Shown: positions 2,642 to 64,000, counted from the stretch's first letter. The stretch is DNA of 64,000 nucleotides from Bacilli bacterium (GCA_017484205.1 JAFUTO010000032.1:6067-70066), one strand, 5' to 3'. Notes: generated from the letters alone by a model not told the origin. Numbers and translations: made by a program.

Positions 2642-4203
2642 CGTAAACTATTTATTTAACTTCCCATTTTTTATTTAATGGGATTTTAACTTTGGAATTG
2701 TTTGGGGAATCTATAGTTTTATATACTTCAAATTTATACTATAATAACTATTGTATTTTTAGCTTATTTGAAAGGAGTATATATGAAAGTTAAAAAATAC
2801 AAACACCTATCTTTTGAAGATAGATGTGTTATTGAAGAATTCTTAAACTATGGTTATAACTTTACTCAAATTGGTAATCGTTTAGGTAAAGATAGAACTA
2901 CTATTTCTGATGAAGTTAGAAAACATAGATTCCTTAGAAATACTTCTAATGTTCCTTGTCCTCTAACCGATAAACCTCCTTATGTTTGTAATAATTGTAG
3001 TAAAAAAAATTATTGTACTAAAATTAAATATACTTATAATCATGATATTGCTTATAATGATTATATGAAAACTTTAATTAATTCTAGAAGTCATATTAAA
3101 ATAACTCGTGATCAAATTGATTCTATTAATGATATTATTTCTCCTTTGATGATTCATAAGCATCATTCAGTTAATCAAGTTTTCATTGAATATCCTAATC
3201 TTCTACCTTTTTCTAAATCTACATTCTATAAATATATTGATTTGGGTATTCTTAATGTTAAAAACATTGATTTAGCTAGAAGAGTTAAATTTAAAGTTAA
3301 AAAAGAATATGAATATACTAGAACTAAAACTAATCCTAGAATTAAAATTGGTAGATTCTATACTGATTTTAAAGACTATCTAGAATATAATCCTAATGCT
3401 TCTATTGTTGAAATGGATACTGTTATTGGTACTTCTGGCGGGAAAGGTGGTAAATGTTTATTGACATTATTATTTAGAAAATATAATTTTATGTTAATTT
3501 ATTTACTTCCTTATAAACAATCGAAGTATGTTATAGAAGTTTTTAATAATCTTAAAAGAGATTTAGGTATTGATGAATTTAAAAGATTATTTGAAGTTAT
3601 TTTAACTGATAATGGTACTGAATTCTCTGATCCTGATAGTATTGAAATCGATATGGATACGGGTGATAAAGTTTCTAATTTATTCTATTGTGATCCTTCT
3701 TGTTCTTGGTAGAAAGGTTCCATTGAAAAGAATCATGAATTTATTAGATATATTTTACCTAAAGGTACTTCTTTTGCTTTCTTAAACCAAGATATGTGTT
3801 TTAAGATGGCTTCTCATATCAATTCAGTCCCAAGAGTTTCTTTAAATAACTCTTCACCATATGTTGAATCTTTCAATTTTATTGGTAAAGATAATATGCA
3901 TATATTTAAAATAAAAAAGATCGATTATAATGACATCGATCTTACATCTAAAATATTTAAATAATATTTTAGAGTTTTAAGCTAAAAATACACATTTCTA
4001 TAATCATATTTACCGGGACGTTTCCTCTACCCATTTTTAGAAATTCAAACTTCCCGTCTTTTTGAATGTAATAATTTAACTTAAATCACTTATATATTAC
4101 CATATTTTTTTATTTTTTCAAATTTTTAACCCTTATTTTATGGGATGTTACAGAAAAACACCCCTTTTTATTTTCTTGTGGGATGTTTCTTTAAAATCTA
4201 ACG
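2642..4203 (+). mobile_element. IS30-family insertion sequence (boundaries approximate)
   Basis: Encodes an IS30-type DDE transposase. Imperfect terminal inverted repeats: GCGTAAACTATTTATTTAACTTCCCA at the left, CGTTAGATTTTAAAGAAACATCCCA as the complement of the right end. Flanked by 14-bp direct repeats. Confidence 0.55.
2783..3964 (+). pseudogene. IS30-family transposase interrupted by an in-frame TAG at 3710-3712
   Basis: AAAGGAG RBS then ATG at 2783. N-terminal HTH, core ...TDNGTEF... Then CDPSCSW-TAG-KGSIEKNHEFIRYILPKG (DDE motif region), continuing in the same frame to TAA at 3962-3964. Confidence 0.75.
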
Positions 4204-49218: not shown

Positions 49219-50622
49219 CTAACTTGTAGTTATTTTATCAAGTTCTTTTAAATACTCTTCTATAGTACCTATATCATCTACAGGTACCTTTTCTCCATTA
49301 ATTATATTATATTTTTCATACCCTTTTCCTAAGATAAGTAAAATATCTTCATCTTTTAATAAATCAATACCTCTTCTAACAGCGTCACGCCTATTCCATA
49401 TTACCTCATAATTTTTTGCATCTAATTTGCCAACCGCGTCATCTATTATTTGTCTTGGATCTTCATCATATTGATGATCTCCTGTCATAATTCCTATTTT
49501 TGACCCTTCGATAGCTAATTTAGCCATAATAGGTCTCATTGTTCTATCTCTTCTGCCACGGCAAGTAAATATTGTATATAAATTACCTTTCATGCCTTCT
49601 TTTGCTTCATTAACAGCTTCCATAGCATTTTTAACTCCATCTGGAGTATGAGCATAATCAATGATAATTCTATTTGTTTTATATTTGATCATATTCATTC
49701 TACCATCTGGTGGTTCTACTTCACTCATAACTTTTCTTATATCTTCTTTTGAATACCCCATTTTATCTAAAATCATAATAGGCATCATCGCATTTGAAAC
49801 ATTATATTTTCCTATTAATTCAGTTTTTATAGTATTAGTCTCTCCCTTATATGTATAAGTAAATTCAGTTTCAAAATTAGATACTTTATAGTTTGTTATA
49901 TGATAATCTCCACCATTAAATCCATATGTATAATTATCATTACCATCTAATATAAATGTATCCTTCCACTCATCATCATAGTTAATAAATGCTTTTCCAT
50001 CATCCTTAAGCATTCTAAATAGCATTTGTTTCGCTTTGGCATATTCTTCTTTAGTTCCATGTAATTCTAAATGAGCATGTGTTAAATTGGTAAATCCTGC
50101 ATAATCAAATGGAATTGTTTTAATTCTACCTAGATATAATCCATGACTACTAACTTCTAAGGCAACTGCCTTACATCCAGCATCATATGCCCTTATTATT
50201 AAATCATATAAGTCACATGCATCTGGAGAAGTATTAGGAAGTGGGCATATTCTTGTCTTATCTATGTAAAAACCAATTGTACCTATATATGCACATTTAC
50301 ATCCTAATTTATTTAATGCTTCATTAATTAAATAACAATCTGTAGTTTTACCATTAGTACCAGTAACACCTATAATAATCATTTCACCTAATATTTTATT
50401 GTAATGACTAGATAAATATTCATTCAAATACTCTCTAGTATCAGGTACTACTATTGTTTCAACATCATAACTACCTTTTTCTACCACTACTTTAGATGCT
50501 CCATTTTTTATAGCGTCTTCAATATAATCATCACCATTACTACTAATGCCTTTTAAAGCAACAAAAGTATCTCCCTTTTTTATTTTTCTAGAATCTGTTT
50601 GTATATCTATCATAATGTTCAC
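49219..50622 (-). CDS. murE: Mur ligase family enzyme, probably UDP-MurNAc-L-Ala-D-Glu:meso-DAP/L-Lys ligase MurE
   Basis: DSRKIKKGDTFVALKG, P-loop GVTGTNGKTT, Mur ligase middle and C-terminal domains. MurE versus MurF not fully resolved. Confidence 0.5.
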   Translation of the reverse strand: MNIMIDIQTDSRKIKKGDTFVALKGISSNGDDYIEDAIKNGASKVVVEKGSYDVETIVVPDTREYLNEYLSSHYNKILGEMIIIGVTGTNGKTTDCYLINEALNKLGCKCAYIGTIGFYIDKTRICPLPNTSPDACDLYDLIIRAYDAGCKAVALEVSSHGLYLGRIKTIPFDYAGFTNLTHAHLELHGTKEEYAKAKQMLFRMLKDDGKAFINYDDEWKDTFILDGNDNYTYGFNGGDYHITNYKVSNFETEFTYTYKGETNTIKTELIGKYNVSNAMMPIMILDKMGYSKEDIRKVMSEVEPPDGRMNMIKYKTNRIIIDYAHTPDGVKNAMEAVNEAKEGMKGNLYTIFTCRGRRDRTMRPIMAKLAIEGSKIGIMTGDHQYDEDPRQIIDDAVGKLDAKNYEVIWNRRDAVRRGIDLLKDEDILLILGKGYEKYNIINGEKVPVDDIGTIEEYLKELDKITTS

Positions 50623-52515: not shown

Positions 52516-53175
52516 TTATTTTAGATTTTGCCTTAATTTACTAATTACTTTTTGTTCGTGTCTTGACACAGCAACTTGATTCATACCAACCTGTTTCGCT
52601 ATTTCTGTTTGAGTCAAATCATACATGTAGTGAGCAAGTATTATCCTTCTATCAACAGGATCTAGTTCATCTAATGCCATTTGTAAATCTATCATACTAT
52701 CTATATCCATAGTAGCACCTATGACATTGTATAAATCCAGGTTACCATCATCACTAATAGCATTATCTAAACTATCTACACAGTAAGTACTATTTACTGC
52801 TTCATTATAGTCTTCTATACTTATATCAAGATAATTAGCTACCTCTTCATCAGTTGGATATCTACCTAGTTCCTGAGCAAGTACACCTTTAACCTTTTCA
52901 ATTTTACTACTACGACTGGATATTTCTTTACTTATAGTAATAGATTTATCTTCCCTAACACATTTACTTATTTCACCTAAAATATAAATATAAGCAAATG
53001 AAGAAAATTTAGTATTTTTACTTGAATCATAATGATTATATGCATCTATTAGTCCAATACACCCTGCTTGATATAAGTCTTCTATATTAGCATATCCCTT
53101 ATATATATTAGCAATCGAATAAATTAAATTCTTATTTTCTAATATAATTTGTTCTGTTATTGTATCTGTCCCCAT
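52516..53175 (-). CDS. sigF: sporulation-type group 3 sigma factor (SigF/SigG-like)
   Basis: Regions 2-4 present (QAGCIGLIDA..., ...LTQTEIAKQVGMNQVAVSRHEQKV...). Immediately downstream of an anti-sigma antagonist gene and upstream of spoVA genes. Confidence 0.65.
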   Translation of the reverse strand: MGTDTITEQIILENKNLIYSIANIYKGYANIEDLYQAGCIGLIDAYNHYDSSKNTKFSSFAYIYILGEISKCVREDKSITISKEISSRSSKIEKVKGVLAQELGRYPTDEEVANYLDISIEDYNEAVNSTYCVDSLDNAISDDGNLDLYNVIGATMDIDSMIDLQMALDELDPVDRRIILAHYMYDLTQTEIAKQVGMNQVAVSRHEQKVISKLRQNLK

Positions 53176-53183
53176 TTAATCAC

Positions 53184-53546
53184 CTATATTTCTATCATTT
53201 TCATAGCGGACATCTCATCTTTTATTTGAAACATACTAGATATCGAACTATGATTTATATAATCCTTGATTTTAGTATTACCACCACATAGCATACTAAT
53301 GCCATTATTATCTCTACACAGATTATAGTTATATAGTATAGCATTTACTCCAGTAATATCTATTTCAGTGATATCATTTATATTGAATACTACATTTCTT
53401 ATTTCCATATCGGCAACCATTTTTGTTACTTCCTTGTTCAAAGTCGCGATCATATCTTTTGTAAGAGAACCTTTAAGTCTAACAAACAAAATACCTTTAT
53501 GAAACTCTTTATCTATTAAAAGCATTCTTCTCACCTTCCTCCCCAC
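53184..53546 (-). CDS. spoIIAA: STAS-domain anti-sigma factor antagonist (SpoIIAA-like)
   Basis: ILFVRLKGSLTKDMIATLNKEV...IRNVVFNINDITEIDITGVNAIL matches the SpoIIAA/RsbV pattern. Confidence 0.55.
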   Translation of the reverse strand: MGRKVRRMLLIDKEFHKGILFVRLKGSLTKDMIATLNKEVTKMVADMEIRNVVFNINDITEIDITGVNAILYNYNLCRDNNGISMLCGGNTKIKDYINHSSISSMFQIKDEMSAMKMIEI

Positions 53547-53587: not shown

Positions 53588-55246
53588 CTAGTTTTTGTTC
53601 CTTTTTTTATATAAAATCAAGACAATTATTATGATTATTAAAAATAAAAATGGTAATATCCATATATAATTATTAGGTATTTTTAGTAATGGAAAAGTAT
53701 TTATTGAATTACTGCATTCATTTAATTCCGCCGAATTATCTTTAAGTTTAATATTTATTAACTCATTTTCAAATTCCTTAGCAATTTTATTCTTTTCTAC
53801 TTCTTTATTTTCTAAAGCTAATTTCGTTTCTTCTAACTGCATATTTAATTCATTAACCTTCATTTTATAATCATTTAATTCAGTTATCAATTTATTATAG
53901 GAATCCACACTGTTCTTTGAATTAATACTATTACTAAGTTCTATAAGTTGTGATGAAACATCTATATTATCATCTACATTAGTAGGTATAATTATATCTT
54001 TTTCTTCTGATTTTGTACTAAGTTCATTATATTCCATAGTTATTTTTTCATAACTATCCATTAAATCTTCGTATTTTTTAGTTAAATCATTAATTTCTAT
54101 ATCAACAACTACATTTTTATTTACTGTTTTAAATGGTGTAATATATCTAACTTTATATGTGCCATTTGTATTGATATCTAAATTCGACTCTATATCAACA
54201 GGTGTTGTACTCATAACATAGTCTTCTAATTTTGATGCTTTATCATTTATTATAATTTCATCTGTAATAGATAATTTGTCTCTCGTTTTATACCTATAAT
54301 ATGTCAAACTATCATCAGTCTTTTTTGTATAATATTCAGTTGCTTTAGGCAAATAATTGACGCTATAAATCTTATTGATTTTATAATAGTAAAAATATTT
54401 ATCACGATATCTATACATAGATATTTTATTTATTTTCGTATATGCATTTTCTTCCATAGCATCAAACGAGATTATGCTATCTTCCCACGTCAGAGATTGA
54501 GTCATATTCTCATAATTATATATATATTCTTTTATATCAGTTAAAGATTCACTTTTAAAGTCTTCAAAAAAATTATATCTTAATATATAGTCTCTATCAG
54601 ATACATAAGTTATATAAAAATATTTATATTCAGAAGTATTATCATATAAATATAATTTAACTTTTATTTCATCATAATTATATGGTTTATCTAAATAAAT
54701 AAGTATTTGGCCTTCATTTTCTATATAAGAAAAATTTTCAACTACAACACCATTATGAATATTTTCATCAAAATTATCACTACATCCATCACATTCATAT
54801 GTATAATTTATCTCATTATCATTTTTATCTAAAATAGATATTTCTGTTATTTTAAATTTATCATCTCCACCATGTATACTACCTATATAAATTTGACTAA
54901 TTTTTTTCACAGTTTGATATTCATAAGCATCTACCTCTTCAATCTCTCTATATTTAGCAGTAGATGGATATTCTTTACTATATTCACTATATTCTCCATA
55001 ATAAAAATTATCTTTATCTAAGTTAGGATATATATCTACATTTTCACCATACTTATAATATTCTCCATCTTTTTCTTCATGATAATATTTATATCGTGTT
55101 TCCTTCTGAACATAAATCGTATCACTTGACTCAATAGGAGTGGTTGTCCATTCACTATAATCAGAATACTTACTATAGTAATCCTTTGCGCCTACATTTA
55201 TAACTCCTAAAAACATACATATAAAAACTAAAATCTTCTTTTTCAA
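53588..55246 (-). CDS. secreted, C-terminally membrane-anchored coiled-coil protein (552 aa)
   Basis: Signal peptide MKKKILVFICMFLGVINVGA, Tyr/Asp/Glu-rich body, coiled-coil segment, C-terminal TM ILPFLFLIIIIIVLILY plus KKRNKN. Confidence 0.4.
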   Translation of the reverse strand: MKKKILVFICMFLGVINVGAKDYYSKYSDYSEWTTTPIESSDTIYVQKETRYKYYHEEKDGEYYKYGENVDIYPNLDKDNFYYGEYSEYSKEYPSTAKYREIEEVDAYEYQTVKKISQIYIGSIHGGDDKFKITEISILDKNDNEINYTYECDGCSDNFDENIHNGVVVENFSYIENEGQILIYLDKPYNYDEIKVKLYLYDNTSEYKYFYITYVSDRDYILRYNFFEDFKSESLTDIKEYIYNYENMTQSLTWEDSIISFDAMEENAYTKINKISMYRYRDKYFYYYKINKIYSVNYLPKATEYYTKKTDDSLTYYRYKTRDKLSITDEIIINDKASKLEDYVMSTTPVDIESNLDINTNGTYKVRYITPFKTVNKNVVVDIEINDLTKKYEDLMDSYEKITMEYNELSTKSEEKDIIIPTNVDDNIDVSSQLIELSNSINSKNSVDSYNKLITELNDYKMKVNELNMQLEETKLALENKEVEKNKIAKEFENELINIKLKDNSAELNECSNSINTFPLLKIPNNYIWILPFLFLIIIIIVLILYKKRNKN

Positions 55247-55360: not shown

Positions 55361-56068
55361 ATGAGGTGTATTATGTTTAAAAAAATATTAAAATTTTTAT
55401 TTAAAGACTTTTACTTATTTACTGCAGCTTATTCTAATAATATATTTCCAGACCCACTATCTAAAGGAGAGGAGGAAGAATGTGTTAGAAAAGCTGGATT
55501 AGGTGATAAAGAAGCTAGAGATAAATTGATTGAACATAATTTAAGATTAGTTGCACATATAGTGAAAAAATATGATCATAGAGCAGAAGATATGGATGAC
55601 TTACTAAGTATTGGTACCATTGGACTTATAAAAGGTGTTGATTCGTATTCATATAAACACGGTACAAGAATTACCACTTATTGCGCTCGTTGTATTGAAA
55701 ACGAAATTTTAATGCATTTTAGAAGTAATAAGAAAAACAATAAAAATATTAGTTTAAACGAATCAATTGGTTTTGATAAAGATGGTAATGAAATTACCCT
55801 ACTTGATATACTTAAAACACCGAAACCTGATTATGCATTAGATATTCATAATAAAGATAGTCTAAACTTACTTAGAGAATATTTTAATGTTTTAACACCA
55901 AGAGAAAGAGAAATATTAAATAAAAGATATGGATTAGGTGAGTACAAAGAAACTACACAAAAAGAGATTGCAAAAGAAATGAATATATCTAGAAGCTATG
56001 TGTCTAGAATAGAAAAAAGAGCATTAACTAAATTATTAAAGGAATTTATTAAAAATAAAAAAGACTAA
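55361..56068 (+). CDS. sigK: pro-sigma-K (or sigE-type) sporulation sigma factor, uninterrupted
   Basis: Pro-sequence ...AAYSNNIFPDPLSKGEEEE (compare sigK YVKNNAFPQPLS), then LIEHNLRLVAHIVKKY, IGTIGLIKGVDSYS, CIENEILMHFR. The pro-sequence could not discriminate sigK from sigE; the sigK call rests on weaker region 2/3 matches. No skin-like insertion. Confidence 0.7.
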   Translation: MRCIMFKKILKFLFKDFYLFTAAYSNNIFPDPLSKGEEEECVRKAGLGDKEARDKLIEHNLRLVAHIVKKYDHRAEDMDDLLSIGTIGLIKGVDSYSYKHGTRITTYCARCIENEILMHFRSNKKNNKNISLNESIGFDKDGNEITLLDILKTPKPDYALDIHNKDSLNLLREYFNVLTPREREILNKRYGLGEYKETTQKEIAKEMNISRSYVSRIEKRALTKLLKEFIKNKKD

Positions 56069-56095
56069 AAAAGATATCCTCAAAGGATATCTTTA
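56069..56095. terminator. bidirectional terminator hairpin between sigK and the downstream minus-strand gene
   Basis: AAGATATCC-tcaa-GGATATCTT with an A-run upstream and T-rich downstream. Confidence 0.5.
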
Positions 56096-56317
56096 TGGTA
56101 ACCAAAATAATAAATCCATAAATGCCCAAAAAGTATTTTTAAATTTAGGATTTAATTTACACAATTTAATAATTGAACCTAAAAGCAAATAAAAGCCAAG
56201 TAAAACAGTTATAAATCCAAATATACCATCTGGTAAAAATATGAAAAATAAAGTTAACATTAATATACTAATTATAAGTGTAGAAATATAGATTACCATT
56301 TTTTTCTTATCAGTCAT
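56093..56317 (-). CDS. small 2-TM membrane protein (74 aa)
   Basis: Two hydrophobic helices; ORF only. Confidence 0.35.
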   Translation of the reverse strand: MTDKKKMVIYISTLIISILMLTLFFIFLPDGIFGFITVLLGFYLLLGSIIKLCKLNPKFKNTFWAFMDLLFWLP

Positions 56318-56362
56318 ACAATCACCAATTTAATTGTATCAAAAAAGTAGATATAAATCTAC

Positions 56363-57256
56363 TTAAAAATTATTAGGAACATTTTCTTTTTCATATGGAT
56401 TATTACTTGTAGCATTAAATCCATCTGGTAAATAATCACTATCGATATATTCAATATAATTTAAATCCATATAGTAATTACAAAATATTATCTCTACATA
56501 TATAATCCTATTTTTATTATCCGTAATAGCATATACGAAACCTTGATATGAATCCGCTTCCATCGCGAGTAATGTATACTTACTGAAACCAGATACACTA
56601 TAGTATCCAATATAATCAGTAGAATTATATTTTTTTAATCTTTCTGTTTCTTTTTGATAATCTTCATCATTATAGTCAACTACTAAATATGATAAATATT
56701 GTGCATCCCATGGATTATAATAAACCATTTTATAATCTATAACATTCATATCATCTGTTATAGTTTTTGGAAATATATCTTCATTCATACCCCATTTATT
56801 TTGATACTCAGTTATAGCGTTAGGGCCCATATAATCATTGTATTTAGAAACATCTGTATTCTCTTCTATTTTAGCTGACGTGAATGAAATATAAATAAAT
56901 CCTATAAGAATAAACATTTGAATTAACCATACTCCTATAATAGCAAGAATGGCAAGAATAACATTTTTTTGAGTTTTCATTTTTTTATATTCTTTTAATA
57001 CATTAACCAAATTGTCATCATATTCCTCAATAATTTTATCTTTCTTTATCTTTTCTCCATTAAGTAAATCATTTACTGTAATACCTAATATATTACATAA
57101 ATCTTTAAGAATAGAATAATCAGGCATATTACTACCTGTTTCCCATCTACTTATTGTTTTTACTGAAACACCTAGTTTTTCACCTAATTCTTCTTGAGTC
57201 AAATTTTTTTCTTTTCTTAAAGTAGCTATAAAAGATCCTATTTTCTTTTGATCCAT
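56363..57256 (-). CDS. membrane-anchored XRE-family HTH regulator (HTH, TM, extracellular domain)
   Basis: GGAGGG RBS plus ATG at 57254-57256. LRKEKNLTQEELGEKLGVSVKTISRWETG HTH, one TM (ILAILAIIGVWLIQMFILIGFIYI), 170-aa C-terminal domain. Confidence 0.55.
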   Translation of the reverse strand: MDQKKIGSFIATLRKEKNLTQEELGEKLGVSVKTISRWETGSNMPDYSILKDLCNILGITVNDLLNGEKIKKDKIIEEYDDNLVNVLKEYKKMKTQKNVILAILAIIGVWLIQMFILIGFIYISFTSAKIEENTDVSKYNDYMGPNAITEYQNKWGMNEDIFPKTITDDMNVIDYKMVYYNPWDAQYLSYLVVDYNDEDYQKETERLKKYNSTDYIGYYSVSGFSKYTLLAMEADSYQGFVYAITDNKNRIIYVEIIFCNYYMDLNYIEYIDSDYLPDGFNATSNNPYEKENVPNNF

Positions 57257-57356
57257 ATAAATCCCTCCATATTCAAGATAAATTATATACAATTTTTATT
57301 AAAGGACATAAAACGAGAATTAATATATAGCTATATTATACCATAAGAAAAAGACA

Positions 57357-58091
57357 TTATTGTCTTTCTTCCTTTTTATTAAGAATTCTTTGATCTCTTT
57401 CATATTTATCTACTTCATATTCATTATCACGTTGTTTCTTATCCCATACATACCATATGACATAACCCAAATCCTCTAAACTGATATCAAAATCCCATAG
57501 TTTAGGATCATCGCCTTTTATAGCTTTAAAAAAATATTCTTTTCCACGCGCAATAACACCTCTTCTTGTGTATAGGAAAGTATCTGAAGAACAAAAGCCA
57601 TCTTCATCTACACATAAGTTAAAGAATTTCTCATCATCTAAAAAGTCCATTAATTCTTCTAAGCATTCATCAAACATGAAAGTATATTCATCATCAACTG
57701 AAGCTAAATAATCTATTAATGGTTCTAAGGCGTCACTATCATCTTTTTTAGTAAAATCACATTTACTTATAATATTCCAAAATTCATTATATCTACGAAA
57801 ATGAACTGGCGAATAACACGTTTCATGTTTTAATTCATAAGCCTTATGAGATACTTCACTTAATATTCTTTTTTCATCATCTTCTAAATCATCATAAATT
57901 TCATCTAAATATTCATCAAAAAGATAGATATCTTCATCATCCATATTAGTTAAACGTGAAACTAATGGTTTTATCCTTTCTTCATCTGTTTTAGCTTTAT
58001 CATCTATTATTCTTATCAGTTGTAAAAAAGTTTCTTTATCCATATTATCATCCCTTATTAGTATTATATAATAAATTTTAAGAGAATGCAC
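57357..58091 (-). CDS. hypothetical acidic protein with internal duplicated D/E-rich motif
   Basis: Repeats DEDIYLFDEYLDEIYDDLEDDEKRIL / DDEYTFMFDECLEELMDFLDDEKFF. Start ambiguous (GTG 58091 or ATG 58043). Confidence 0.35.
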   Translation of the reverse strand: MHSLKIYYIILIRDDNMDKETFLQLIRIIDDKAKTDEERIKPLVSRLTNMDDEDIYLFDEYLDEIYDDLEDDEKRILSEVSHKAYELKHETCYSPVHFRRYNEFWNIISKCDFTKKDDSDALEPLIDYLASVDDEYTFMFDECLEELMDFLDDEKFFNLCVDEDGFCSSDTFLYTRRGVIARGKEYFFKAIKGDDPKLWDFDISLEDLGYVIWYVWDKKQRDNEYEVDKYERDQRILNKKEERQ

Positions 58092-58519
58092 TAATCATTT
58101 AGATTAGCACATTCCCCTTCAATATCTCTTACTAATATACCATAATAGTTACCTAGTAAGATTAACCCGTGTTCCATATAACCAGTTGTTATATTATATG
58201 AAGCTACATATATATATTTATCTTCAGTAATATCACCTAGATACCATTCATCTTCATATTTACTCACATATAACATATCTAAAACATTTCCATATGGCGT
58301 ACTAGATAAAATACTATAGTATACTAATGCATCATGTTTATCTTCATATTCATTAATTATAGGTAAAATTATGTCATTATCTAAAGTTGTCCTATTAGAA
58401 AAGCACCTCCTATCATTTTTAAATTTAGTAATAACCTCCGAATTAATATGAAGCTTTTTAATAATTTCTTCAAATCTTTTTATCGCTTCATTATATTGTC
58501 TTTCTTTTAAATTATCCAT
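58091..58519 (-). CDS. hypothetical protein (142 aa)
   Basis: ORF; stop overlaps the next gene's start. Confidence 0.35.
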   Translation of the reverse strand: MDNLKERQYNEAIKRFEEIIKKLHINSEVITKFKNDRRCFSNRTTLDNDIILPIINEYEDKHDALVYYSILSSTPYGNVLDMLYVSKYEDEWYLGDITEDKYIYVASYNITTGYMEHGLILLGNYYGILVRDIEGECANLND

Positions 58520-58627
58520 TAGAACTCCTTTCTATAGATAGTATATAACATATTTGTATCACATAAAACTAAACTGGTCATAAAATGTGGATTAGTTAAA
58601 ATTTAAAAAAGATTGAAATCAATCTTT

Positions 58628-60106
58628 TTATTTATCTTTTCGTGCTTTTTCCCTATATCTATCCATATCTCTTTGATATTCATTTTCAGCGTCAACGCCG
58701 CCATATCTAATTCTATTATCTGAATTACGCATAGATATAGCTTTTTGTTCAATATCAATATCCTTAACATCTTCTTTTAATAAATCAAGTTTTTCTTCAT
58801 TTTTTGATATTTGTGAATAAACATCTTTAAGATTTTTTCTATTTTCTTCCTGCATTTGATTAATTACATCTTTACTCTTTTCAGCTTCTGTAGAAGCATA
58901 TTCTTTTACATCATCAACTTGTTTTTGGAAATCAGTATAAGCTTTTTCTTGTTCATAAAGGTTAATACATTCTTTAAGTGTATCACATCTACCTTTTTGT
59001 AAATACTTTTTAAACAATAGTATTATATCAGTTTCTAGATAATCTTCATGAATGGACATAATTTTTACTTCTTTTATAGATTCGTTTAATTGCTCACCTA
59101 TTTGTTTTTGTTTCTTTTGTTCATTAACTAATTTTTTATCAAGATCTTTAATATTATTTTCGATTTCATGTTTTGTCTTTACGTATTCATCTTTGTAATG
59201 CTTTTCTTTTATTTCTTTATCTTTTAAATATTTATTATATTCTTCTTCATATTTTTCTTCTAATGTATTTAACTCATTTGTTTTACGTTTACTATTTATA
59301 AAATGCACGATAATAGTTTTAATAATATATAAAACTATACTACTTATAATTGCTAAAGCAATAATTCGAATAACACCAGCAAACACAATGTAATTAATTC
59401 CATTGCCAAATATTATAGCTATTCCCATCAAAAGAAGAATTCCACCTAGAATAGGAAGTCCCATGCAAAGTAATCCTATCAGTATAAATAAGGCTGAAAA
59501 TATTGTTCCTATAACATCTTCTATATCGCCATCTTCATACATCTCAATTTTCCCTTTATCAATAATAGAAGCATGGTGGTAATAATCAATACCTATTTTA
59601 TCATGTGCCCTAGCATATTCAACATAAGTTCCTTGGAATGGAATAGGAACATCATTTTCATCATAGTCTTCTGCAGAATATTCAAAATTTTTAATAAAAC
59701 TTGGATATTTTTCTTCTAATTTCGATTCTAATTTTACATAGTATTCATGACGTTTAGCATCATCATCAAGAGTAGTTAATGTATTTATCATCATAACAGA
59801 AACGATTATAATAGCTAAAACATATCCAATAATAAACCATCCTATAATATGTTTCTTTGAATCTCGTTTTATAGTTTTATGTAATTTTATATATTCTTCT
59901 TTTGATACAAACTTTTCTACTTGTTCTACCTTTAAATTATTTAATCTATTTTTTTCACTTTCAATTTCATCATTAATGTTTGAAATATTTTCTAAAGAAT
60001 TTAAATATTGCTTTTTTATTTTATCCCTTAATAAAATTTTATTATAAACTTCATCTAACGCTTTCTCTAAATTACTATTTTTAAGTTTACTCAAATCTTT
60101 ACCCAT
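58628..60106 (-). CDS. multi-TM membrane protein flanked by long coiled-coil segments (492 aa)
   Basis: AAAGGAG RBS. Central 5 hydrophobic helices (IIGWFIIGYVLAIIIVSV..., FSALFILIGLLCMGLPILGGILLLMGIAIIF...). Heptad-rich N- and C-terminal parts. Confidence 0.4.
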   Translation of the reverse strand: MGKDLSKLKNSNLEKALDEVYNKILLRDKIKKQYLNSLENISNINDEIESEKNRLNNLKVEQVEKFVSKEEYIKLHKTIKRDSKKHIIGWFIIGYVLAIIIVSVMMINTLTTLDDDAKRHEYYVKLESKLEEKYPSFIKNFEYSAEDYDENDVPIPFQGTYVEYARAHDKIGIDYYHHASIIDKGKIEMYEDGDIEDVIGTIFSALFILIGLLCMGLPILGGILLLMGIAIIFGNGINYIVFAGVIRIIALAIISSIVLYIIKTIIVHFINSKRKTNELNTLEEKYEEEYNKYLKDKEIKEKHYKDEYVKTKHEIENNIKDLDKKLVNEQKKQKQIGEQLNESIKEVKIMSIHEDYLETDIILLFKKYLQKGRCDTLKECINLYEQEKAYTDFQKQVDDVKEYASTEAEKSKDVINQMQEENRKNLKDVYSQISKNEEKLDLLKEDVKDIDIEQKAISMRNSDNRIRYGGVDAENEYQRDMDRYREKARKDK

Positions 60107-60160
60107 AACTACTCCTTTTAATCATTAATATATCTACTTATATTGGTATTATATCACATA

Positions 60161-60400
60161 TTAATTTTCATTAATATAAGTTTTTAACTTTCTTATAGCT
60201 TTTTCTTCTATTTGATGAATTCTTTCCCTAGATAAATTTAAAATAACACTTACTTTATCTAATGATTTATATTCTTCATCTTTAAGACCATATTTTATTT
60301 CTAAAACTTTCATTTCACTATTTGCAAGGCAAGAAAAATCATCTTCTTTTATACATCTTAATATTTTACCCATTTCATATTCTCTTTTTGATATATTCAT
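60161..60400 (-). CDS. stand-alone sigma-70 region-4-like HTH protein (79 aa)
   Basis: AAGGAGA RBS plus ATG at 60398-60400. ...SEMKVLEIKYGLKDEEYKSLDKVSVILNLSRERIHQIEEKAIRKL matches the sigma-70 region 4 pattern (L.LRFGL...TL.EVG....VTRERIRQIE.KAL.KL). Confidence 0.5.
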   Translation of the reverse strand: MNISKREYEMGKILRCIKEDDFSCLANSEMKVLEIKYGLKDEEYKSLDKVSVILNLSRERIHQIEEKAIRKLKTYINEN

Positions 60401-60449
60401 AATATTCTCCTTATTTTCATTTATAAATATCATAATAATTAATAATATT

Positions 60450-60839
60450 TTACTCACTAAATTCTATCTTATTTCCAAACAAATCTATATAATCTTCATA
60501 AAAATGTTTAGGATTTAGTTTAGATAAATTTTCTACATATAATAAAGTATAGTTTTTGCGAACTTCATCTATAAATTTAACATAATACCATGTATCATAT
60601 GTAGAATTAGTAATTAATATATAATTTCTTAGATTAAATCTATCATTTAATCTATCTATTGCCTCTTTTCTATATTCCTTATTATATTTTATTTTATCAA
60701 TAAACTCATCATAATCATTTTCTTCAAATAATATCTTATAACTTTCTTTCATATCAATCGCGATTGATAAATTAATATTTTTGCCTTCTAACATAGGATG
60801 TAATTCACTCCCATGTAATACTTTATTAATTCTTTCCAT
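60450..60839 (-). CDS. hypothetical protein (129 aa)
   Basis: ORF only. Confidence 0.35.
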   Translation of the reverse strand: MERINKVLHGSELHPMLEGKNINLSIAIDMKESYKILFEENDYDEFIDKIKYNKEYRKEAIDRLNDRFNLRNYILITNSTYDTWYYVKFIDEVRKNYTLLYVENLSKLNPKHFYEDYIDLFGNKIEFSE

Positions 60840-60996
60840 TTATATTTCCTTTCTAACTAAATATTTATTTTTATCTATTTTTGTTAAACTACCGTCTTTA
60901 GTATAACCAGCTAAATAATCTATAACTCTTATTCTAAGTTTCACACTTAATTTACTAATATCTATTAGCATATTATCTTTTATATTTTTTAAATTT

Positions 60997-61479
60997 TCAT
61001 ATTTGCTTACTATCATTAATTACCTCCTCATTTAAATACTTACTAGGAATAAGTTCATATTCTTCATTATTCTTTTCTATTATTATAGCTCTTATTAAAC
61101 CATTCTTTCTTTCTAAATATATTCCATCTACATAGGTAGTTACTTCTATATCATTTTCTAACTCACGTGCATATTTATGATTATATTTATTTTCTAATTT
61201 AGATATTAATCTACGTTTATAAGTATCATATTTTGTATACCCTATTTTTTCATCACGATAAGAAATTGAATGCATATCTACTTCTAGTTTTGTATTATAG
61301 TATATAAAACTATGACTAATTTTTATACCTGTTTTCTTATATGCCTCCTTCAAAGATTTTGGATCAATACACTCTAAATATTTACTTTCAATAATTCTAA
61401 TGATTGTTTCATTAGAAAGATTATTCATATTATATAATTCATCTACTTTATTTAACATAATTACTCCTTTCATTTTCAT
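60997..61479 (-). CDS. hypothetical protein (160 aa)
   Basis: ORF only. Confidence 0.35.
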   Translation of the reverse strand: MKMKGVIMLNKVDELYNMNNLSNETIIRIIESKYLECIDPKSLKEAYKKTGIKISHSFIYYNTKLEVDMHSISYRDEKIGYTKYDTYKRRLISKLENKYNHKYARELENDIEVTTYVDGIYLERKNGLIRAIIIEKNNEEYELIPSKYLNEEVINDSKQI

Positions 61480-61532
61480 TATATAATTTTATAAATATAT
61501 AAAAAATATAACTGGTCATAAAAAGAAAAGAA

Positions 61533-62516
61533 CTACTTTGATAGTTCTTCTAATAAATCATTTATTTTAATATCATCCAATTCCTTAAGTTTTTCTTCAT
61601 TATCATAGTGTAATTTTTTTAGCATGCTAATTCCTCTACTTAATATTATTTCACATTGAAGTTTTAAAAAATCATTATATTTATCATAATCTCTTTTTTT
61701 CAAATCCCAAGGTAGCAATTCAAGAAGATCTTTTAAATTATCATCATAATCTTTCAAAAAATTATCCTCAATGAAATTTTCGTCAAACCAATCTTTCGTA
61801 TTTTTAATAAGTTCTTTTTTTGACCCAAGTAGTTTCTCGTATTCATTATTTTTCATTTTGCTAAGCGTAAGATGAAAATAATCCTCCACACCATAGTGTG
61901 ATCTACTTGTATTAAAATCTTTTGGTACAGGCATAAAATTGCCTATTGTGTGATATAGTTTTAAAAACGCATATAAATAAGGAGAATTCTTGAAAACATC
62001 TAGCACATTTCTACTATTCTTATCATATTCATTAAAACATTTATTAACAGTATAATTTTCAGAACCTTTACCACATGTAAATCTATGATTGTAGTAATAG
62101 TTCATCATATAACTTAAACTAGTTGAAAAAGATGTTAGTGTATCACTATAGAAATAATTATTCGTACCATTTATCATATACGACTTAGAATCAGCCTTAG
62201 ACCATAGTTTATCATAGATTTGTTGTAATAATATACTATTGCTATCAGGATCTCCTACTGTATTATATAATAGATCATTTTTTATTTTTTTAACATATTC
62301 CTGATCTTGACTAGAAGTAGAACACAATCTCGCTTTATATATAAAATATTTATCAATATATGAATCATTATTTATATATTTTGTTGAACCACAATCATTA
62401 GTAAAATCATATAACAATTGATCATTTATGCTTAAGTTTTTAAAATCCTTCATTATCTTATCTTTGCATTCTTCAATATTTTGCATTCTATTTTTATTAA
62501 ATTCTTCTAATGTCAT
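61533..62516 (-). CDS. hypothetical protein (327 aa), first gene downstream of the WYL regulator
   Basis: ORF 4 nt downstream of the WYL gene; no recognisable motif. Confidence 0.4.
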   Translation of the reverse strand: MTLEEFNKNRMQNIEECKDKIMKDFKNLSINDQLLYDFTNDCGSTKYINNDSYIDKYFIYKARLCSTSSQDQEYVKKIKNDLLYNTVGDPDSNSILLQQIYDKLWSKADSKSYMINGTNNYFYSDTLTSFSTSLSYMMNYYYNHRFTCGKGSENYTVNKCFNEYDKNSRNVLDVFKNSPYLYAFLKLYHTIGNFMPVPKDFNTSRSHYGVEDYFHLTLSKMKNNEYEKLLGSKKELIKNTKDWFDENFIEDNFLKDYDDNLKDLLELLPWDLKKRDYDKYNDFLKLQCEIILSRGISMLKKLHYDNEEKLKELDDIKINDLLEELSK

Positions 62517-62520
62517 ATTA

Positions 62521-63510
62521 TCACCTTCCTAAATAATCATTTAATATTTTATTTATTTCATTTTTTAATTCTATAGGTTTAATTATATCTATATATTCTA
62601 TATTTCTAAGTACATAATATTTAAAACCTTCAATATCTTTATTCATTTTTAATTTAAAATGATTATTATCATATTTTTTAATATCTATATCTTTACCAAA
62701 TACTTCTATAACATTATCAAGTAGTTTATTATCACATATTACTTCTATATCACTACCCTTGCCTCCATACATAGATATAGATGATTTAACAATCTCATTT
62801 ATTCTACTTTCACTTATCTTTTTAGATGGTGTATCTAAAATACTAATATTTTTTATTCTATCAATTCTAAATGTTTTTAGTTCATTTTCACCTTGCTTTA
62901 AAGCTATTAAATATAATTCTTGTATTGAATATATAATGGCATATGGTGATATTTTATATGTATCAACTTTGACACTTTTTAAAATAGGATTTAATTCATA
63001 CTTATAATAATCAAATGATATTTCTAACTTATTGTATATAGCATTTTGAATATCTTCTATATTTTTTATAATTTCCATATTATTAGTCTTAATATTATTA
63101 GAATATATTTTATAATTTTTTAGTTTTTCTGCCTCATATATATTTTGCATATTCTTACATTTATCAATTATCCCATTTGATATAACTTCAGGAACAAAAG
63201 TAGCATAACTAAAAGTATCTATAATCGTCCTAATCTCGCCTGGTTCAAATTCATTTTCTGGATTATTTATTAAATAGTAATAATTTTTATTGCCCACTTT
63301 ATCAATCTCAATATCATAATCTAATTTATTTATAAGTAAGTCAATGTTTCTTTCTAAAGTTCTTCTATCATTTTTGACACCATATATATCTTCTACATAT
63401 TTAATAATATCTTGAATTGATAATTTGTGTTCTTCATTAGAATATTTTTTAAGGATATTAATAATATATAAAGCATTCCCGTTTTTTTCATGATAATTCT
63501 TTTCTTCCAT
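62521..63510 (-). CDS. HTH-WYL-domain transcriptional regulator (BrxR/CapW-like architecture)
   Basis: GGAGG RBS plus ATG at 63508-63510. N-terminal DeoR-type HTH (LSIQDIIKYVEDIYGVKNDRRTLERNIDLL), central WYL signature ...ELKTFRIDRIKNISIL..., about 100-aa C-terminal extension. Confidence 0.6.
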   Translation of the reverse strand: MEEKNYHEKNGNALYIINILKKYSNEEHKLSIQDIIKYVEDIYGVKNDRRTLERNIDLLINKLDYDIEIDKVGNKNYYYLINNPENEFEPGEIRTIIDTFSYATFVPEVISNGIIDKCKNMQNIYEAEKLKNYKIYSNNIKTNNMEIIKNIEDIQNAIYNKLEISFDYYKYELNPILKSVKVDTYKISPYAIIYSIQELYLIALKQGENELKTFRIDRIKNISILDTPSKKISESRINEIVKSSISMYGGKGSDIEVICDNKLLDNVIEVFGKDIDIKKYDNNHFKLKMNKDIEGFKYYVLRNIEYIDIIKPIELKNEINKILNDYLGR

Positions 63511-63593
63511 AATTCCTCCATTCAAGTAAATCATACCATATATTAAATTATCAGTAAATAAGAACTGGGCACAAAATGTAAAAAAGATAGAAC

Positions 63594-64000
63594 CTATCTA
63601 TCTTTCATTCTTAATTTTTCTAATACTTTATCATGTATTTCAAATTTAGGATATGCATTCTTAATGTGTCTATATAATATAGAATTCGCATCTATAAAAT
63701 CTAATACTTTCTTTCTTATAACTTCAGTATTATCTTTAGCTTGTTTTTTAATTTCACCTTTAATCTTATTCATTACATTAAATGAAACAATATTATCTAT
63801 TATATATATAACGAATAATATAATCGCGATTATAATTAATAATGTAGGATTTAAATAATCTACTATTTTTACAATTAAAGGATGAAGTAAGTATATTACA
63901 ACACATCCTAAGATTCCAAATGGTAACATCGTTTCTAGACAAATACGTCCATTAATATTAAATTTTCTTCTAGAGTAATCCCACCATCTAGCTTTAAATA
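63594..64000 (-). CDS. membrane protein, N-terminus beyond window end
   Basis: Frame stays open to position 64000 (...WWDYSRRKFNINGRICLETMLPFGILGCVVIYL...). At least 2 TM helices. Confidence 0.35.
   Translation of the reverse strand, partial: FKARWWDYSRRKFNINGRICLETMLPFGILGCVVIYLLHPLIVKIVDYLNPTLLIIIAIILFVIYIIDNIVSFNVMNKIKGEIKKQAKDNTEVIRKKVLDFIDANSILYRHIKNAYPKFEIHDKVLEKLRMKDR

Follow-up and report, generated by a model that had tools for sequence, protein, structure and literature searches.

Most of what has been learnt about transcriptional activators with a WYL domain comes from Caulobacter, mycobacteria and Acinetobacter, and the known DNA-damage regulons extend to recA and other repair genes. 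SepF (YlmF) is the membrane tether of FtsZ in Firmicutes, Actinobacteria and Cyanobacteria. WYL activators that induce division inhibitors have been documented, as in the DriD–DidA and DdaA–AciT pairs, and according to cryo-electron microscopy the site used by DriD is conserved in position, always equally far from the -10 element, in promoters that have no -35 element (PMC13004042); Tyr192 and Arg207 of DriD are the residues of its WYL domain that contact single-stranded DNA (ssDNA; PMC10853764). Repressors of the winged helix-turn-helix (wHTH)-WYL-WCX type, including BrxR and CapW, head defence operons and likewise sense ssDNA (PMC9122601; PMC11662680). Here we describe a gene cassette headed by a WYL regulator in a stretch of 64,000 nucleotides, hereafter called the window, from a low-GC (about 23–30%) spore-forming 'Bacilli bacterium' metagenome-assembled genome (MAG; GCA_017484205.1, JAFUTO010000032.1:6067-70066). 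We hold it plausible, though somewhat short of probable, that this is a WYL-activated and ssDNA-triggered conflict or damage cassette, which would pair a nucleic-acid effector with a modulator of cell division and would lean towards action against phages and other mobile genetic elements (MGEs). Cassettes for stress or defence under WYL control are already known, and what is new here is the gene content and the promoter box, for which no description was found in the searchable literature.

The core of the cassette encodes the WYL protein, p327 (a protein of 327 amino acids, aa), p153, p58, p129 and p142, in the same order in the window and in the related genomes L005 and L009 (Table 1). Backbone proteins are only 72–79% identical across these three, which therefore represent different species; among the other genomes compared, L001 and L002 are from the same organism as the window and L003 is, with L009, from a related one. 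Gene order, conservation, the positions and spacing of the box, family memberships and allele mosaicism are established by the comparison; the core runs from 63580 down to 58080. The gene order bore out the proposal of an earlier, first-pass annotation that a WYL regulator heads a set of otherwise unannotated genes, and all of the open reading frames (ORFs) that it listed were found on the minus strand, at or near where it had placed them. It had overlooked the gene for p58, which is called in public assemblies and is conserved. National Center for Biotechnology Information (NCBI) entries of the MBR13772xx series are identical to four of the island proteins.

The WYL domain of the regulator was recognized by Pfam (PF13280, E 1.5e-10, 41 bits against a cut-off of 21.8), and the protein matched PADLOC WYL models with E-values of 4e-21 and 1e-12; PDLC01457 aligns to it from residue 37 and PDLC01652 covers residues 155–333, including the C-terminal extension. 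With regard to the earlier description of a DeoR-type HTH followed by a WYL domain and an extension, the WYL assignment is upheld by both databases, and a DeoR-type HTH is suggested by the architecture alone, no HTH family having scored at E <= 0.1 in Pfam. The N-terminal 100 residues are the best-conserved part of this WYL subfamily, whose members are 80–85% identical to the window protein in L005 and L009 and 46–51% identical in the loci L016, L019, L020 and L046. A WCX domain was not matched by Pfam in the window protein; PF25583 (WCX) was matched in 7 of the 27 WYL proteins that neighbour DUF6994 genes. When the WYL segment was aligned to the DriD chains, Y200 fell on Tyr192, R215 on Arg207 and F214 on Trp206, with Y200 and R215 being invariant in the subfamily.

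Alignment of the regions upstream of WYL revealed a conserved GC-containing block amid divergent AT-rich DNA. A motif search located this box at three places only in the window island, all intergenic and on the coding strand, upstream of WYL, p153 and p142, respectively, with a fourth match (two mismatches) lying within a gene at 50238. Each island copy comes after a terminator-like hairpin with a T-run and before a -10 element reading TATGAT, TATAAT or TATACT; the hairpin preceding box 2 (61528-61549) overlaps the stop codon of p327, and that preceding box 3 lies at 58608-58627. Three orthologous copies were also present in each of L005 and L009, in both of which the p153 promoter is nearly identical throughout to that of the window. 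When box and -10 element were combined into the pattern TG[ACT]CC[AG]-N26-31-TAT[AG][AC]T, exactly three matches were found in 64 kb, namely the three island promoters, which were also picked up independently by other motif searches, with shuffled sequences giving 1.0 on average. Distant loci encoding the same WYL subfamily at 46–51% identity carried one to three boxes (L016, L019, L020, L046, L047-L054 and L061), typically one ahead of the WYL operon and another behind the gene that follows WYL, with one further instance after the DUF6994 gene of L061. The 27 instances from 14 loci gave the consensus TACATTnTrTGwCCAr, in which four positions (C8, G16 and CC18-19) are invariant. The gap between box and -10 element was 28–30 nt in 25 of the 27, the -10 score averaged 5.7/6, and the best -35 score averaged 3.2/6 against 2.7 for random sequence; the box sits upstream of the -35 position and was asymmetric in 20 instances.

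The only DNA-binding protein common to all of the box-bearing loci is the WYL protein. From this, together with the DriD-like promoter geometry and the conserved ssDNA contacts, we infer that it is an autoregulated activator of the three local promoters, acting through the box. The likeness to DriD, PafBC and DdaA lies in the conserved Tyr and Arg of the WYL domain, in a site at fixed distance from a good -10 element without a -35 element, in several promoters that share this site, including that of the regulator itself, and in a small, division-affecting protein as a presumed output; the DriD regulon also holds an endonuclease, BapE. In contrast to those systems, only the WYL segment resembles the DriD chains (E about 0.1-0.3), the sequence of the box is unrelated and asymmetric, the regulon has been seen only locally, one of the outputs is hypervariable, and DUF6994, the SepF-like core, p129 and p142 have no counterparts there.

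The first-pass annotation had instead seen a BrxR/CapW-type repressor at the head of one tightly spaced operon of eight to nine genes, which would form a new phage-defence system under additional control by a small sigma factor and a membrane-anchored XRE protein. The locus does share with those of BrxR and CapW the position of the WYL gene as the first gene on the same strand as its presumed targets, probable autoregulation, ssDNA as a likely trigger and cargo that differs from locus to locus, and such a model agrees with the match of the WYL protein and its C-terminal extension to CRISPR-associated WYL models of PADLOC. In addition, the box lies within an inverted repeat in some relatives: the boxes of L052 at 2981-3030 and 3455-3500 occupy the loop of an inverted repeat with perfect 10-bp arms followed by a T-run, and that of L051 (1547-1590) has the same position between 7-bp arms, again followed by a T-run. 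These repeats count against activation, as repressor operators are often inverted repeats, and a repressor could also use a fixed site; the L051 and L052 elements appear to serve both as the terminator of the upstream gene and as the promoter region of the next. Over the 27 instances, however, a mostly asymmetric box upstream of the -35 position, with fixed spacing to the -10 element and a -35 close to random, argues for activation, exerted over three promoters, and for a protein nearer to the DriD/PafBC activators; moreover, no WCX domain was detected in the window protein, and no PADLOC-recognized defence system in its surroundings. The single operon did not hold up either. Judged by terminators and promoters, the core would consist of three transcription units (WYL with the DUF6994 gene; p153-p58-p129 with the inserted genes; p142), and a terminator with a 17-bp stem follows p142, giving at least five units for the whole region. 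We consider this repressor model distinctly unlikely, also with regard to a restriction–modification pair adjoining the L061 cassette (see below), which would count in its favour.

Two further explanations of the box were rejected. As a -35 element it would be too far from the -10 element, at 28–30 nt, and as an RNA element or terminator loop it found no support, since the arms covary in few loci only, the box of the window clade comes after the terminator, and Rfam had no family match over the box region.

The genes that the earlier model had placed at the centre of a multi-layered control turned out to be peripheral. The gene for the small sigma factor and that for p492 were found in the window only, inserted between p129 and p142, a slot that holds an unrelated 325-aa gene in L009 and is empty in L005, and this pair is, as judged from these three genomes, a lineage-specific insertion. 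The genes for the DUF4240 protein, the XRE protein and a 74-aa ORF (p74) lie beyond the 17-bp-stem terminator, have no box and are absent from both L005 and L009. An extended -10 element (TGATATAAT) occurs directly upstream of p492 (60107-60160), with an analogue (TGGTATAAT) upstream of the unrelated insert in L009, and it seems that box-independent promoters came in with the inserted genes. The expectation that content would vary between relatives was borne out for the p327 allele and the inserted accessory genes; the core is conserved rather than strain-variable as a whole.

The second core protein, p327, is by its profile-defined relatives a divergent member of the DUF6994 family. A word-indexed search retrieved five homologues only, and a profile search of 1.84 billion cluster representatives retrieved 859 at E <= 1e-3; PF22507 (DUF6994) matched 89 of 106 p327 relatives (best 2e-21), and the closest homologues, P0007 and P0010, scored 27–29 bits against a cut-off of 27. 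The Pfam curators predict for DUF6994 the minimal beta-beta-alpha-metal fold that is also found in HNH and type IV restriction enzymes; they note invariant aspartates and an active site that departs from the canonical one (PMC11701544). Invariant Asp residues and a conserved polar core are also features of p327, in whose subfamily D89, D91, T126, S129, H189, G192, N193, N202, R205, D212 and R294 show no or next to no variation. H189, conserved at more than 90%, need not be the counterpart of the catalytic His that Pfam reports to be replaced by Ala in DUF6994. An AlphaFold2 model of p327 had a predicted local distance difference test (pLDDT) of 80 and a predicted template modelling score of 0.86, and the p327 profile found no significant match among PDB sequences. 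We regard p327 as a candidate nucleic-acid enzyme, predicted to be nuclease-like, in place of the earlier statement that no function could be assigned in this island and that no nuclease-like protein was present. Its association with a WYL regulator resembles that of BrxU with BrxR, and it differs from BrxU and GmrSD in having no DUF262-like partner domain.

A genome scan for DUF6994 yielded 38 loci in gut and rumen Firmicutes, and of the 39 loci considered once the window and L005 were included, 22 had a WYL gene, mostly directly upstream. Recurrent neighbours of DUF6994 were phosphoesterases of the Metallophos (8 loci) and HAD_SAK_2 (4 loci) families, an HD protein, a PD-(D/E)XK protein, p58 (8 loci, and more with later loci) and several unannotated families. 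In the searchable literature DUF6994 is mentioned by a single paper and DUF4240 by none, and the present survey provides a first genomic context for DUF6994, with WYL in about half of the loci, phosphoesterase neighbours and swapped alleles, a combination that suggests a function in nucleic-acid conflict or repair. Two other arrangements were observed in the scan. In L011 (5825-7441), a 538-aa fusion of sigma-70 region 2 and WYL heads an operon with HAD, Metallophos and two tandem DUF6994 genes. In L022, L024, L030 and L042, loci of Bacilli MAGs that have no WYL gene, DUF6994 occurs with p58 and with 230-aa, 139-aa and 339-aa families. A gene for an Amidase_3-LysM protein is close by, joined in L022 by one for a serine recombinase; these surroundings may mark the end of a prophage, or the amidase may be one of sporulation, and they gave no phage-database match.

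The pattern at p327 is that of an allele replaced while its flanks were conserved. At the nucleotide level L001 and L005 are about 90% identical as far as the stop codon of WYL, 35–65% across p327 and about 92% from the p153 promoter onwards, with sharp boundaries, and the L005 allele is nearer to those of other organisms (48%, 44% and 41%) than to that of the window. Likewise, the WYL proteins of L016, L019 and L020 form one group, near-identical to each other and 46–48% identical to the window protein, yet L020 carries a DUF6994 allele from a different clade. Such swapping is typical of conflict genes and unexpected for a housekeeping repair enzyme.

This last point bears on the main rival explanation, in which the cassette is an SOS-independent DNA-damage checkpoint of the DriD/PafBC/DdaA kind without any role in phage defence, where ssDNA would induce DUF6994 as a repair or processing enzyme and p58 as a brake on division. 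Much of what has been described above is in line with such a checkpoint, including the activator-type promoter geometry, the conserved ssDNA-contact residues, the precedents for WYL activators with division inhibitors and the lack of a PADLOC match; three species have also kept the core by vertical descent at a single chromosomal site, and the DUF6994 neighbours are end-processing phosphoesterases as in repair operons. A repair enzyme would not, on the other hand, be expected as 35–42%-identical alleles between 90%-identical flanks, and the regulon seen here does not reach beyond the cassette, whose three boxes are the only ones in 64 kb, in contrast to the known damage regulons. The protein families are moreover extremely rare, and accessory genes are inserted at variable positions. 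We judge a pure checkpoint to be possible, on the doubtful side, and lean towards anti-phage or anti-MGE defence, for which allele swapping, variable cargo, patchy distribution and the restriction–modification neighbour in L061 all speak.

The candidate division modulator of the cassette is p58. A profile built from 11 p58 homologues matched 6scq, 3p04 and 6sat in the PDB with E-values of 6e-6 to 9e-6, and 3zih with 3e-4; these are chains from SepF crystal structures, 6scq and 6sat from Corynebacterium glutamicum and 3zih from Bacillus subtilis. In this alignment p58 K46, at least 90% conserved, fell on C. glutamicum K125, and Y52 (or F) on F131, so that both FtsZ-tail contact residues are kept. 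In C. glutamicum SepF, the K125E/F131A double mutation abolished binding of the FtsZ C-terminal peptide, and the SepF core without membrane peptide and linker still bound and bundled FtsZ, but was mislocalized and did not complement (PMC7118173). With its 58 aa, p58 begins at the core domain and has neither the N-terminal, membrane-targeting amphipathic helix nor the linker, and probably no alpha-3 helix; it is therefore a SepF-like core rather than a SepF orthologue, and we predict it to be a decoy or modulator that binds the FtsZ tail, not a tether. It also differs from SepF in being encoded in a WYL cassette instead of the dcw cluster, always paired with variable neighbours of 130–160 aa. 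The p58 family was found in 12 loci, none of which lacks both DUF6994 and a WYL gene; in six it occurs together with the p129 family, and elsewhere it is followed by unrelated 130–160-aa proteins. An independent cassette in L061 (4326-10004) consists of WYL, DUF6994, the box, g120, a p129-like gene, g311 and a gene for a 64-aa SepF-like protein with a weak precomputed Pfam match to PF04472, and adjoins a DNA methylase and a Bsp6I-type restriction endonuclease. Like SulA, YneA, SidA/DidA and AciT, p58 would be a small protein whose induction by a damage-sensing regulator accompanies that of DNA-processing functions; it is unrelated to them in sequence, and none of them is SepF-like.

From these comparisons we infer the identity of the box binder, activation over repression, the ligand, the nuclease activity, the binding of FtsZ and the purpose of the cassette. 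The WYL protein would bind the box via its conserved N-terminal domain and, once its WYL domain was loaded with single-stranded nucleic acid arising from DNA damage or from attack by phage or mobile DNA, would recruit RNA polymerase as DriD, PafBC and DdaA do, with ssDNA probably being the trigger. Induction would raise the level of the WYL protein itself and that of the DUF6994 protein, the predicted HNH/type-IV-restriction-like enzyme acting on nucleic acid, whose swapping between lineages is what would be expected of a specificity-bearing conflict protein. The p58 core would at the same time occupy the C-terminal tail of FtsZ while being unable to reach the membrane, and we propose that division would thereby be delayed or perturbed; p153, p129 and p142 would be induced alongside. 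The most far-reaching version, that this is an undescribed immune or checkpoint system of Firmicutes, with an ssDNA-triggered WYL activator, a swappable DUF6994 nuclease and an anchor-less SepF decoy on the FtsZ tail, we put forward as speculative and rather unlikely. If true, it would couple an attack by foreign DNA to an immediate block of cell division, and the DUF6994/p58/p129/g311 neighbourhood, with or without WYL, would make up a new multi-gene defence family of gut and rumen Firmicutes. The 58-aa SepF core under stress control is itself a concrete candidate for a new class of FtsZ-tail-binding division modulators. The WYL regulon can in any case be read from sequence in Firmicutes, with a 16-nt box, fixed spacing and three promoters per locus, over the 27 instances. 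Should the defence reading be wrong, the cassette would still be a compact model of WYL-dependent activation; should both be wrong, it would be a lineage-restricted operon of modest interest.

Several observations weigh against a defence cassette of this composition. The p327 protein itself had no Pfam match and lies below the DUF6994 threshold, and tblastn with two DUF6994 alleles against GenBank phages, and with one against plasmids, did not find the family, the sole match in the plasmid collection being weak and partial (27% identity, 42% coverage). As a single sequence p58 reached only E 0.0038 against Pfam SepF (PF04472), 17.9 bits with a cut-off of 27, and FtsZ need not be its partner. 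The core is kept in three species, a vertical conservation unlike that of a typical mobile defence island. PADLOC-DB v2 gave nothing beyond generic WYL, HTH and sigma region-4 matches, which also agrees with the earlier view that a defence system here would be of an undescribed type, as no island protein matched a known system. Half of the core (p153, p129 and p142) returned no functional clue in the searches. No Pfam, PDB or viral match was obtained for p153, which corresponds to the N-terminal domain of longer proteins in L009 and L053 with a WG-repeat C-terminal domain. Profile searches with p129 and p142 gave no significant Pfam or PDB match, and each has five or fewer clusters among 5.8 billion proteins; p129, which carries the C-terminal motif Y-x-D-(I/L)-F-G-N-x-I-x-F, returned nothing in a first metagenome scan, and the AlphaFold2 model of p142 had a pLDDT of 38. 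Comparison by hhalign among p129, the 139-aa family, p142, p153, p58 and others did not uncover any remote relationship. Searches of Pfam, PADLOC, PHROGs and NCBIfam with ten proteins assigned function only to WYL, Sigma70_r4, DUF4240 and XRE.

Some of the core genes have relatives in phages, as would be expected if the island were what remains of a temperate phage or other mobile element, domesticated or in decay, with WYL as its regulator, the boxes as early promoters and the small genes as early or moron genes. The WYL protein matched phrog_13105 and has full-length homologues of 24–28% identity in faecal phage contigs, and p142 has relatives of 29–38% identity in two IMG/VR phage contigs (L007 7842-8246 and L008 7986-8384), where they adjoin genes for DNA polymerase/primase, dCMP deaminase, ParB-like and amidoligase-like proteins. 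One of only two remote homologues of p492 lies in a phage-like or mobile context, among HTH_3 (cro-like), RNA_helicase and CdiA_C genes, and in L054 a WYL protein of the same subfamily heads AAA and DnaA-like ATPases. The Amidase_3-LysM gene and serine recombinase next to some WYL-less DUF6994 loci would fit as well, though a sporulation role for the amidase would be just as possible. Counted over identical codons, third-position identity was 0.82-0.90 for WYL, p153 and p129 compared with 0.67-0.72 for rsmI, cotF and sigK, placing the cassette above the backbone at synonymous sites. However, neither an integrase nor a tRNA was seen in or beside the island, nor were att-like repeats or genes for structural or packaging proteins, its GC content (0.20-0.27) is only slightly under that of the neighbouring backbone (0.28-0.32), and the chromosomal neighbourhood is partly common to the three species, with the cassette at the sigK 3' end in the window and L009 (the L005 contig stops short of that point) and a CoatF/TP_methylase neighbourhood in the window and L005. 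None of 50,697 phage records matched DUF6994 or the 230-aa and 339-aa families that neighbour it, and viral-contig scans with p327, p492, p129 and p153 returned nothing. An origin of this kind appears quite improbable.

Two specific mobile features were considered and rejected. An att site or tRNA target for the island was not found. In L009 (14224-16333; MAG RGIG9169) sigK is split, with a 134-aa C-terminal fragment (SigK residues 105-233) adjoining the p142 homologue and followed by a 587-aa large serine recombinase, as in a skin-like intervening element. Location of the island inside such an element was discarded, since the L009 recombinase element interrupts sigK and runs away from the cassette, and sigK of the window is intact.

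The location beside the sigK 3' end in the window and L009, with sporulation genes on both sides, raises the question whether the cassette is a mother-cell or sporulation module that lies with sigK, sigF, spoVA and cotF through a role in spore formation. An action of a SepF-like protein on the asymmetric septum is conceivable, and p129 had a very weak, non-significant match (E 0.035) to a spore germination protein. By consensus reading of their -10 elements, however, the three unit promoters are of the sigma-A type and not sigma-E, -K, -F or -G motifs, so that sporulation is not favoured, and they carry a cassette-specific box; other Firmicutes carry WYL-box cassettes of this kind at positions unrelated to the present one, and the DUF6994 allele is hypervariable. 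The earlier note had pointed to a block conserved at one position with sporulation-type promoters as the mark of such a module, and here the core is indeed conserved in three species while its promoters are of another type. We regard a sporulation module as highly improbable.

Table 1. Features of the cassette and its borders, with positions counted from the first letter of the window; the last two columns give protein identity of the core genes in L005 and L009
Feature	Position	Strand	Remarks	L005	L009
Terminator-like hairpin with T-run ending the CmpB-like gene	63583..63605	-	9-nt inverted repeat, 100% complementarity; right boundary		
Box 1 (TACATTTTGTGCCCAG)	63565..63580	-	Upstream of WYL; block conserved in L005 and L009		
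WYL promoter, -10 TATGAT with TG extension	63530-63535	-	Ribosome-binding site GGAGG at 63515-63519		
WYL-domain transcription regulator	62521..63510	-	329 aa from ATG at 63510 (ORF listing from 63534); 329 aa in public assemblies	85%	80%
p327, divergent DUF6994-family protein (profile-based)	61533..62516	-	Profile-defined family	35%	42%
Box 2 (core TATGACCAG)	61512..61527	-	Upstream of p153; -10 TATAAT at 61478-61483		
p153	60997..61458	-	Lineage-restricted; public gene calls	86%	54%
p58, stand-alone SepF-like core domain	60840..61016	-	Family profile	83%	50%
p129	60450..60839	-	Conserved partner family	90%	66%
Stand-alone sigma-70 region-4 protein, 79 aa	60161..60400	-	Pfam		
p492, multi-transmembrane protein	58628..60106	-	Hydropathy		
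Box 3 (CACATTTTATGACCAG)	58574..58589	-	Upstream of p142; -10 TATACT at 58540-58545; orthologous in L005 and L009		
p142, last conserved core gene	58091..58519	-	Own box promoter; acidic, pI 4.7	76%	81%
Strong intrinsic-terminator-like hairpin, 17 pairs	58080..58118	-	Ends core cassette, after p142		
DUF4240 protein, 228 aa from ATG at 58043	57357..58043 (ORF to 58091)	-	Pfam; peripheral		
Membrane-anchored XRE-family HTH protein, 297 aa	56363..57256	-	HTH_3 and transmembrane segment; peripheral		
p74, 74-aa hydrophobic ORF	56093..56317	-	ORF listing; not a called gene in public assemblies		
Hairpin between island and convergent sigK	56070..56094	.	Probably bidirectional terminator; left boundary		
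sigK, intact	55361..56068	+	NCBIfam NF004471 SigK, 304 bits against cut-off 252; context only		

At the borders, sigK converges on the island from the left and reaches the cut-off of the SigK subfamily in NCBIfam. On the right, what had been taken for a partial membrane protein running past the end of the window, with the island possibly continuing beyond it, proved to be a complete, CmpB-like gene of 224 aa whose own terminator lies directly before the WYL promoter; beyond it come cellulase, TP_methylase (rsmI-like), cotF, ileS and divIVA genes. The island therefore stops on this side.

Of the peripheral proteins, that of 79 aa was rightly described as a stand-alone sigma-70 region 4, with a Pfam Sigma70_r4 match at E 6e-9 and NCBIfam matches spanning region 4 of RpoD only. 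A crude hydropathy scan of p492 gave three hydrophobic stretches, the second and third close together at 208-258. The DUF4240 protein was matched in two stretches (E 5e-25) and has a net charge of -29, in agreement with its earlier description as an acidic protein with an internal duplication, though self-BLAST detected no repeat. A membrane-anchored XRE regulator was confirmed, by HTH_3 at E 1.5e-16 and one transmembrane segment at residues 100-118; its C-terminal domain had no homologue in any fetched locus, and a link to the cassette was rejected, as the matches in L009 and L016 comprise the HTH alone.

Between sigK and the next genes on the minus strand lies a gene for a 552-aa protein (53588-55246), hydrophobic at its N-terminus and over a stretch near the C-terminus as seen by eye, which had no NCBIfam match and no homologue among the fetched loci. 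It is followed by a SpoIIAA-like STAS protein (53184-53546, minus strand) and, 8 nt on, a SigB/F/G-family sigma factor (52516-53175, minus strand), both under the NCBIfam equivalog cut-offs and with no spoIIAB-sized gene between them; this pair may represent a reduced or rearranged spoIIA operon.

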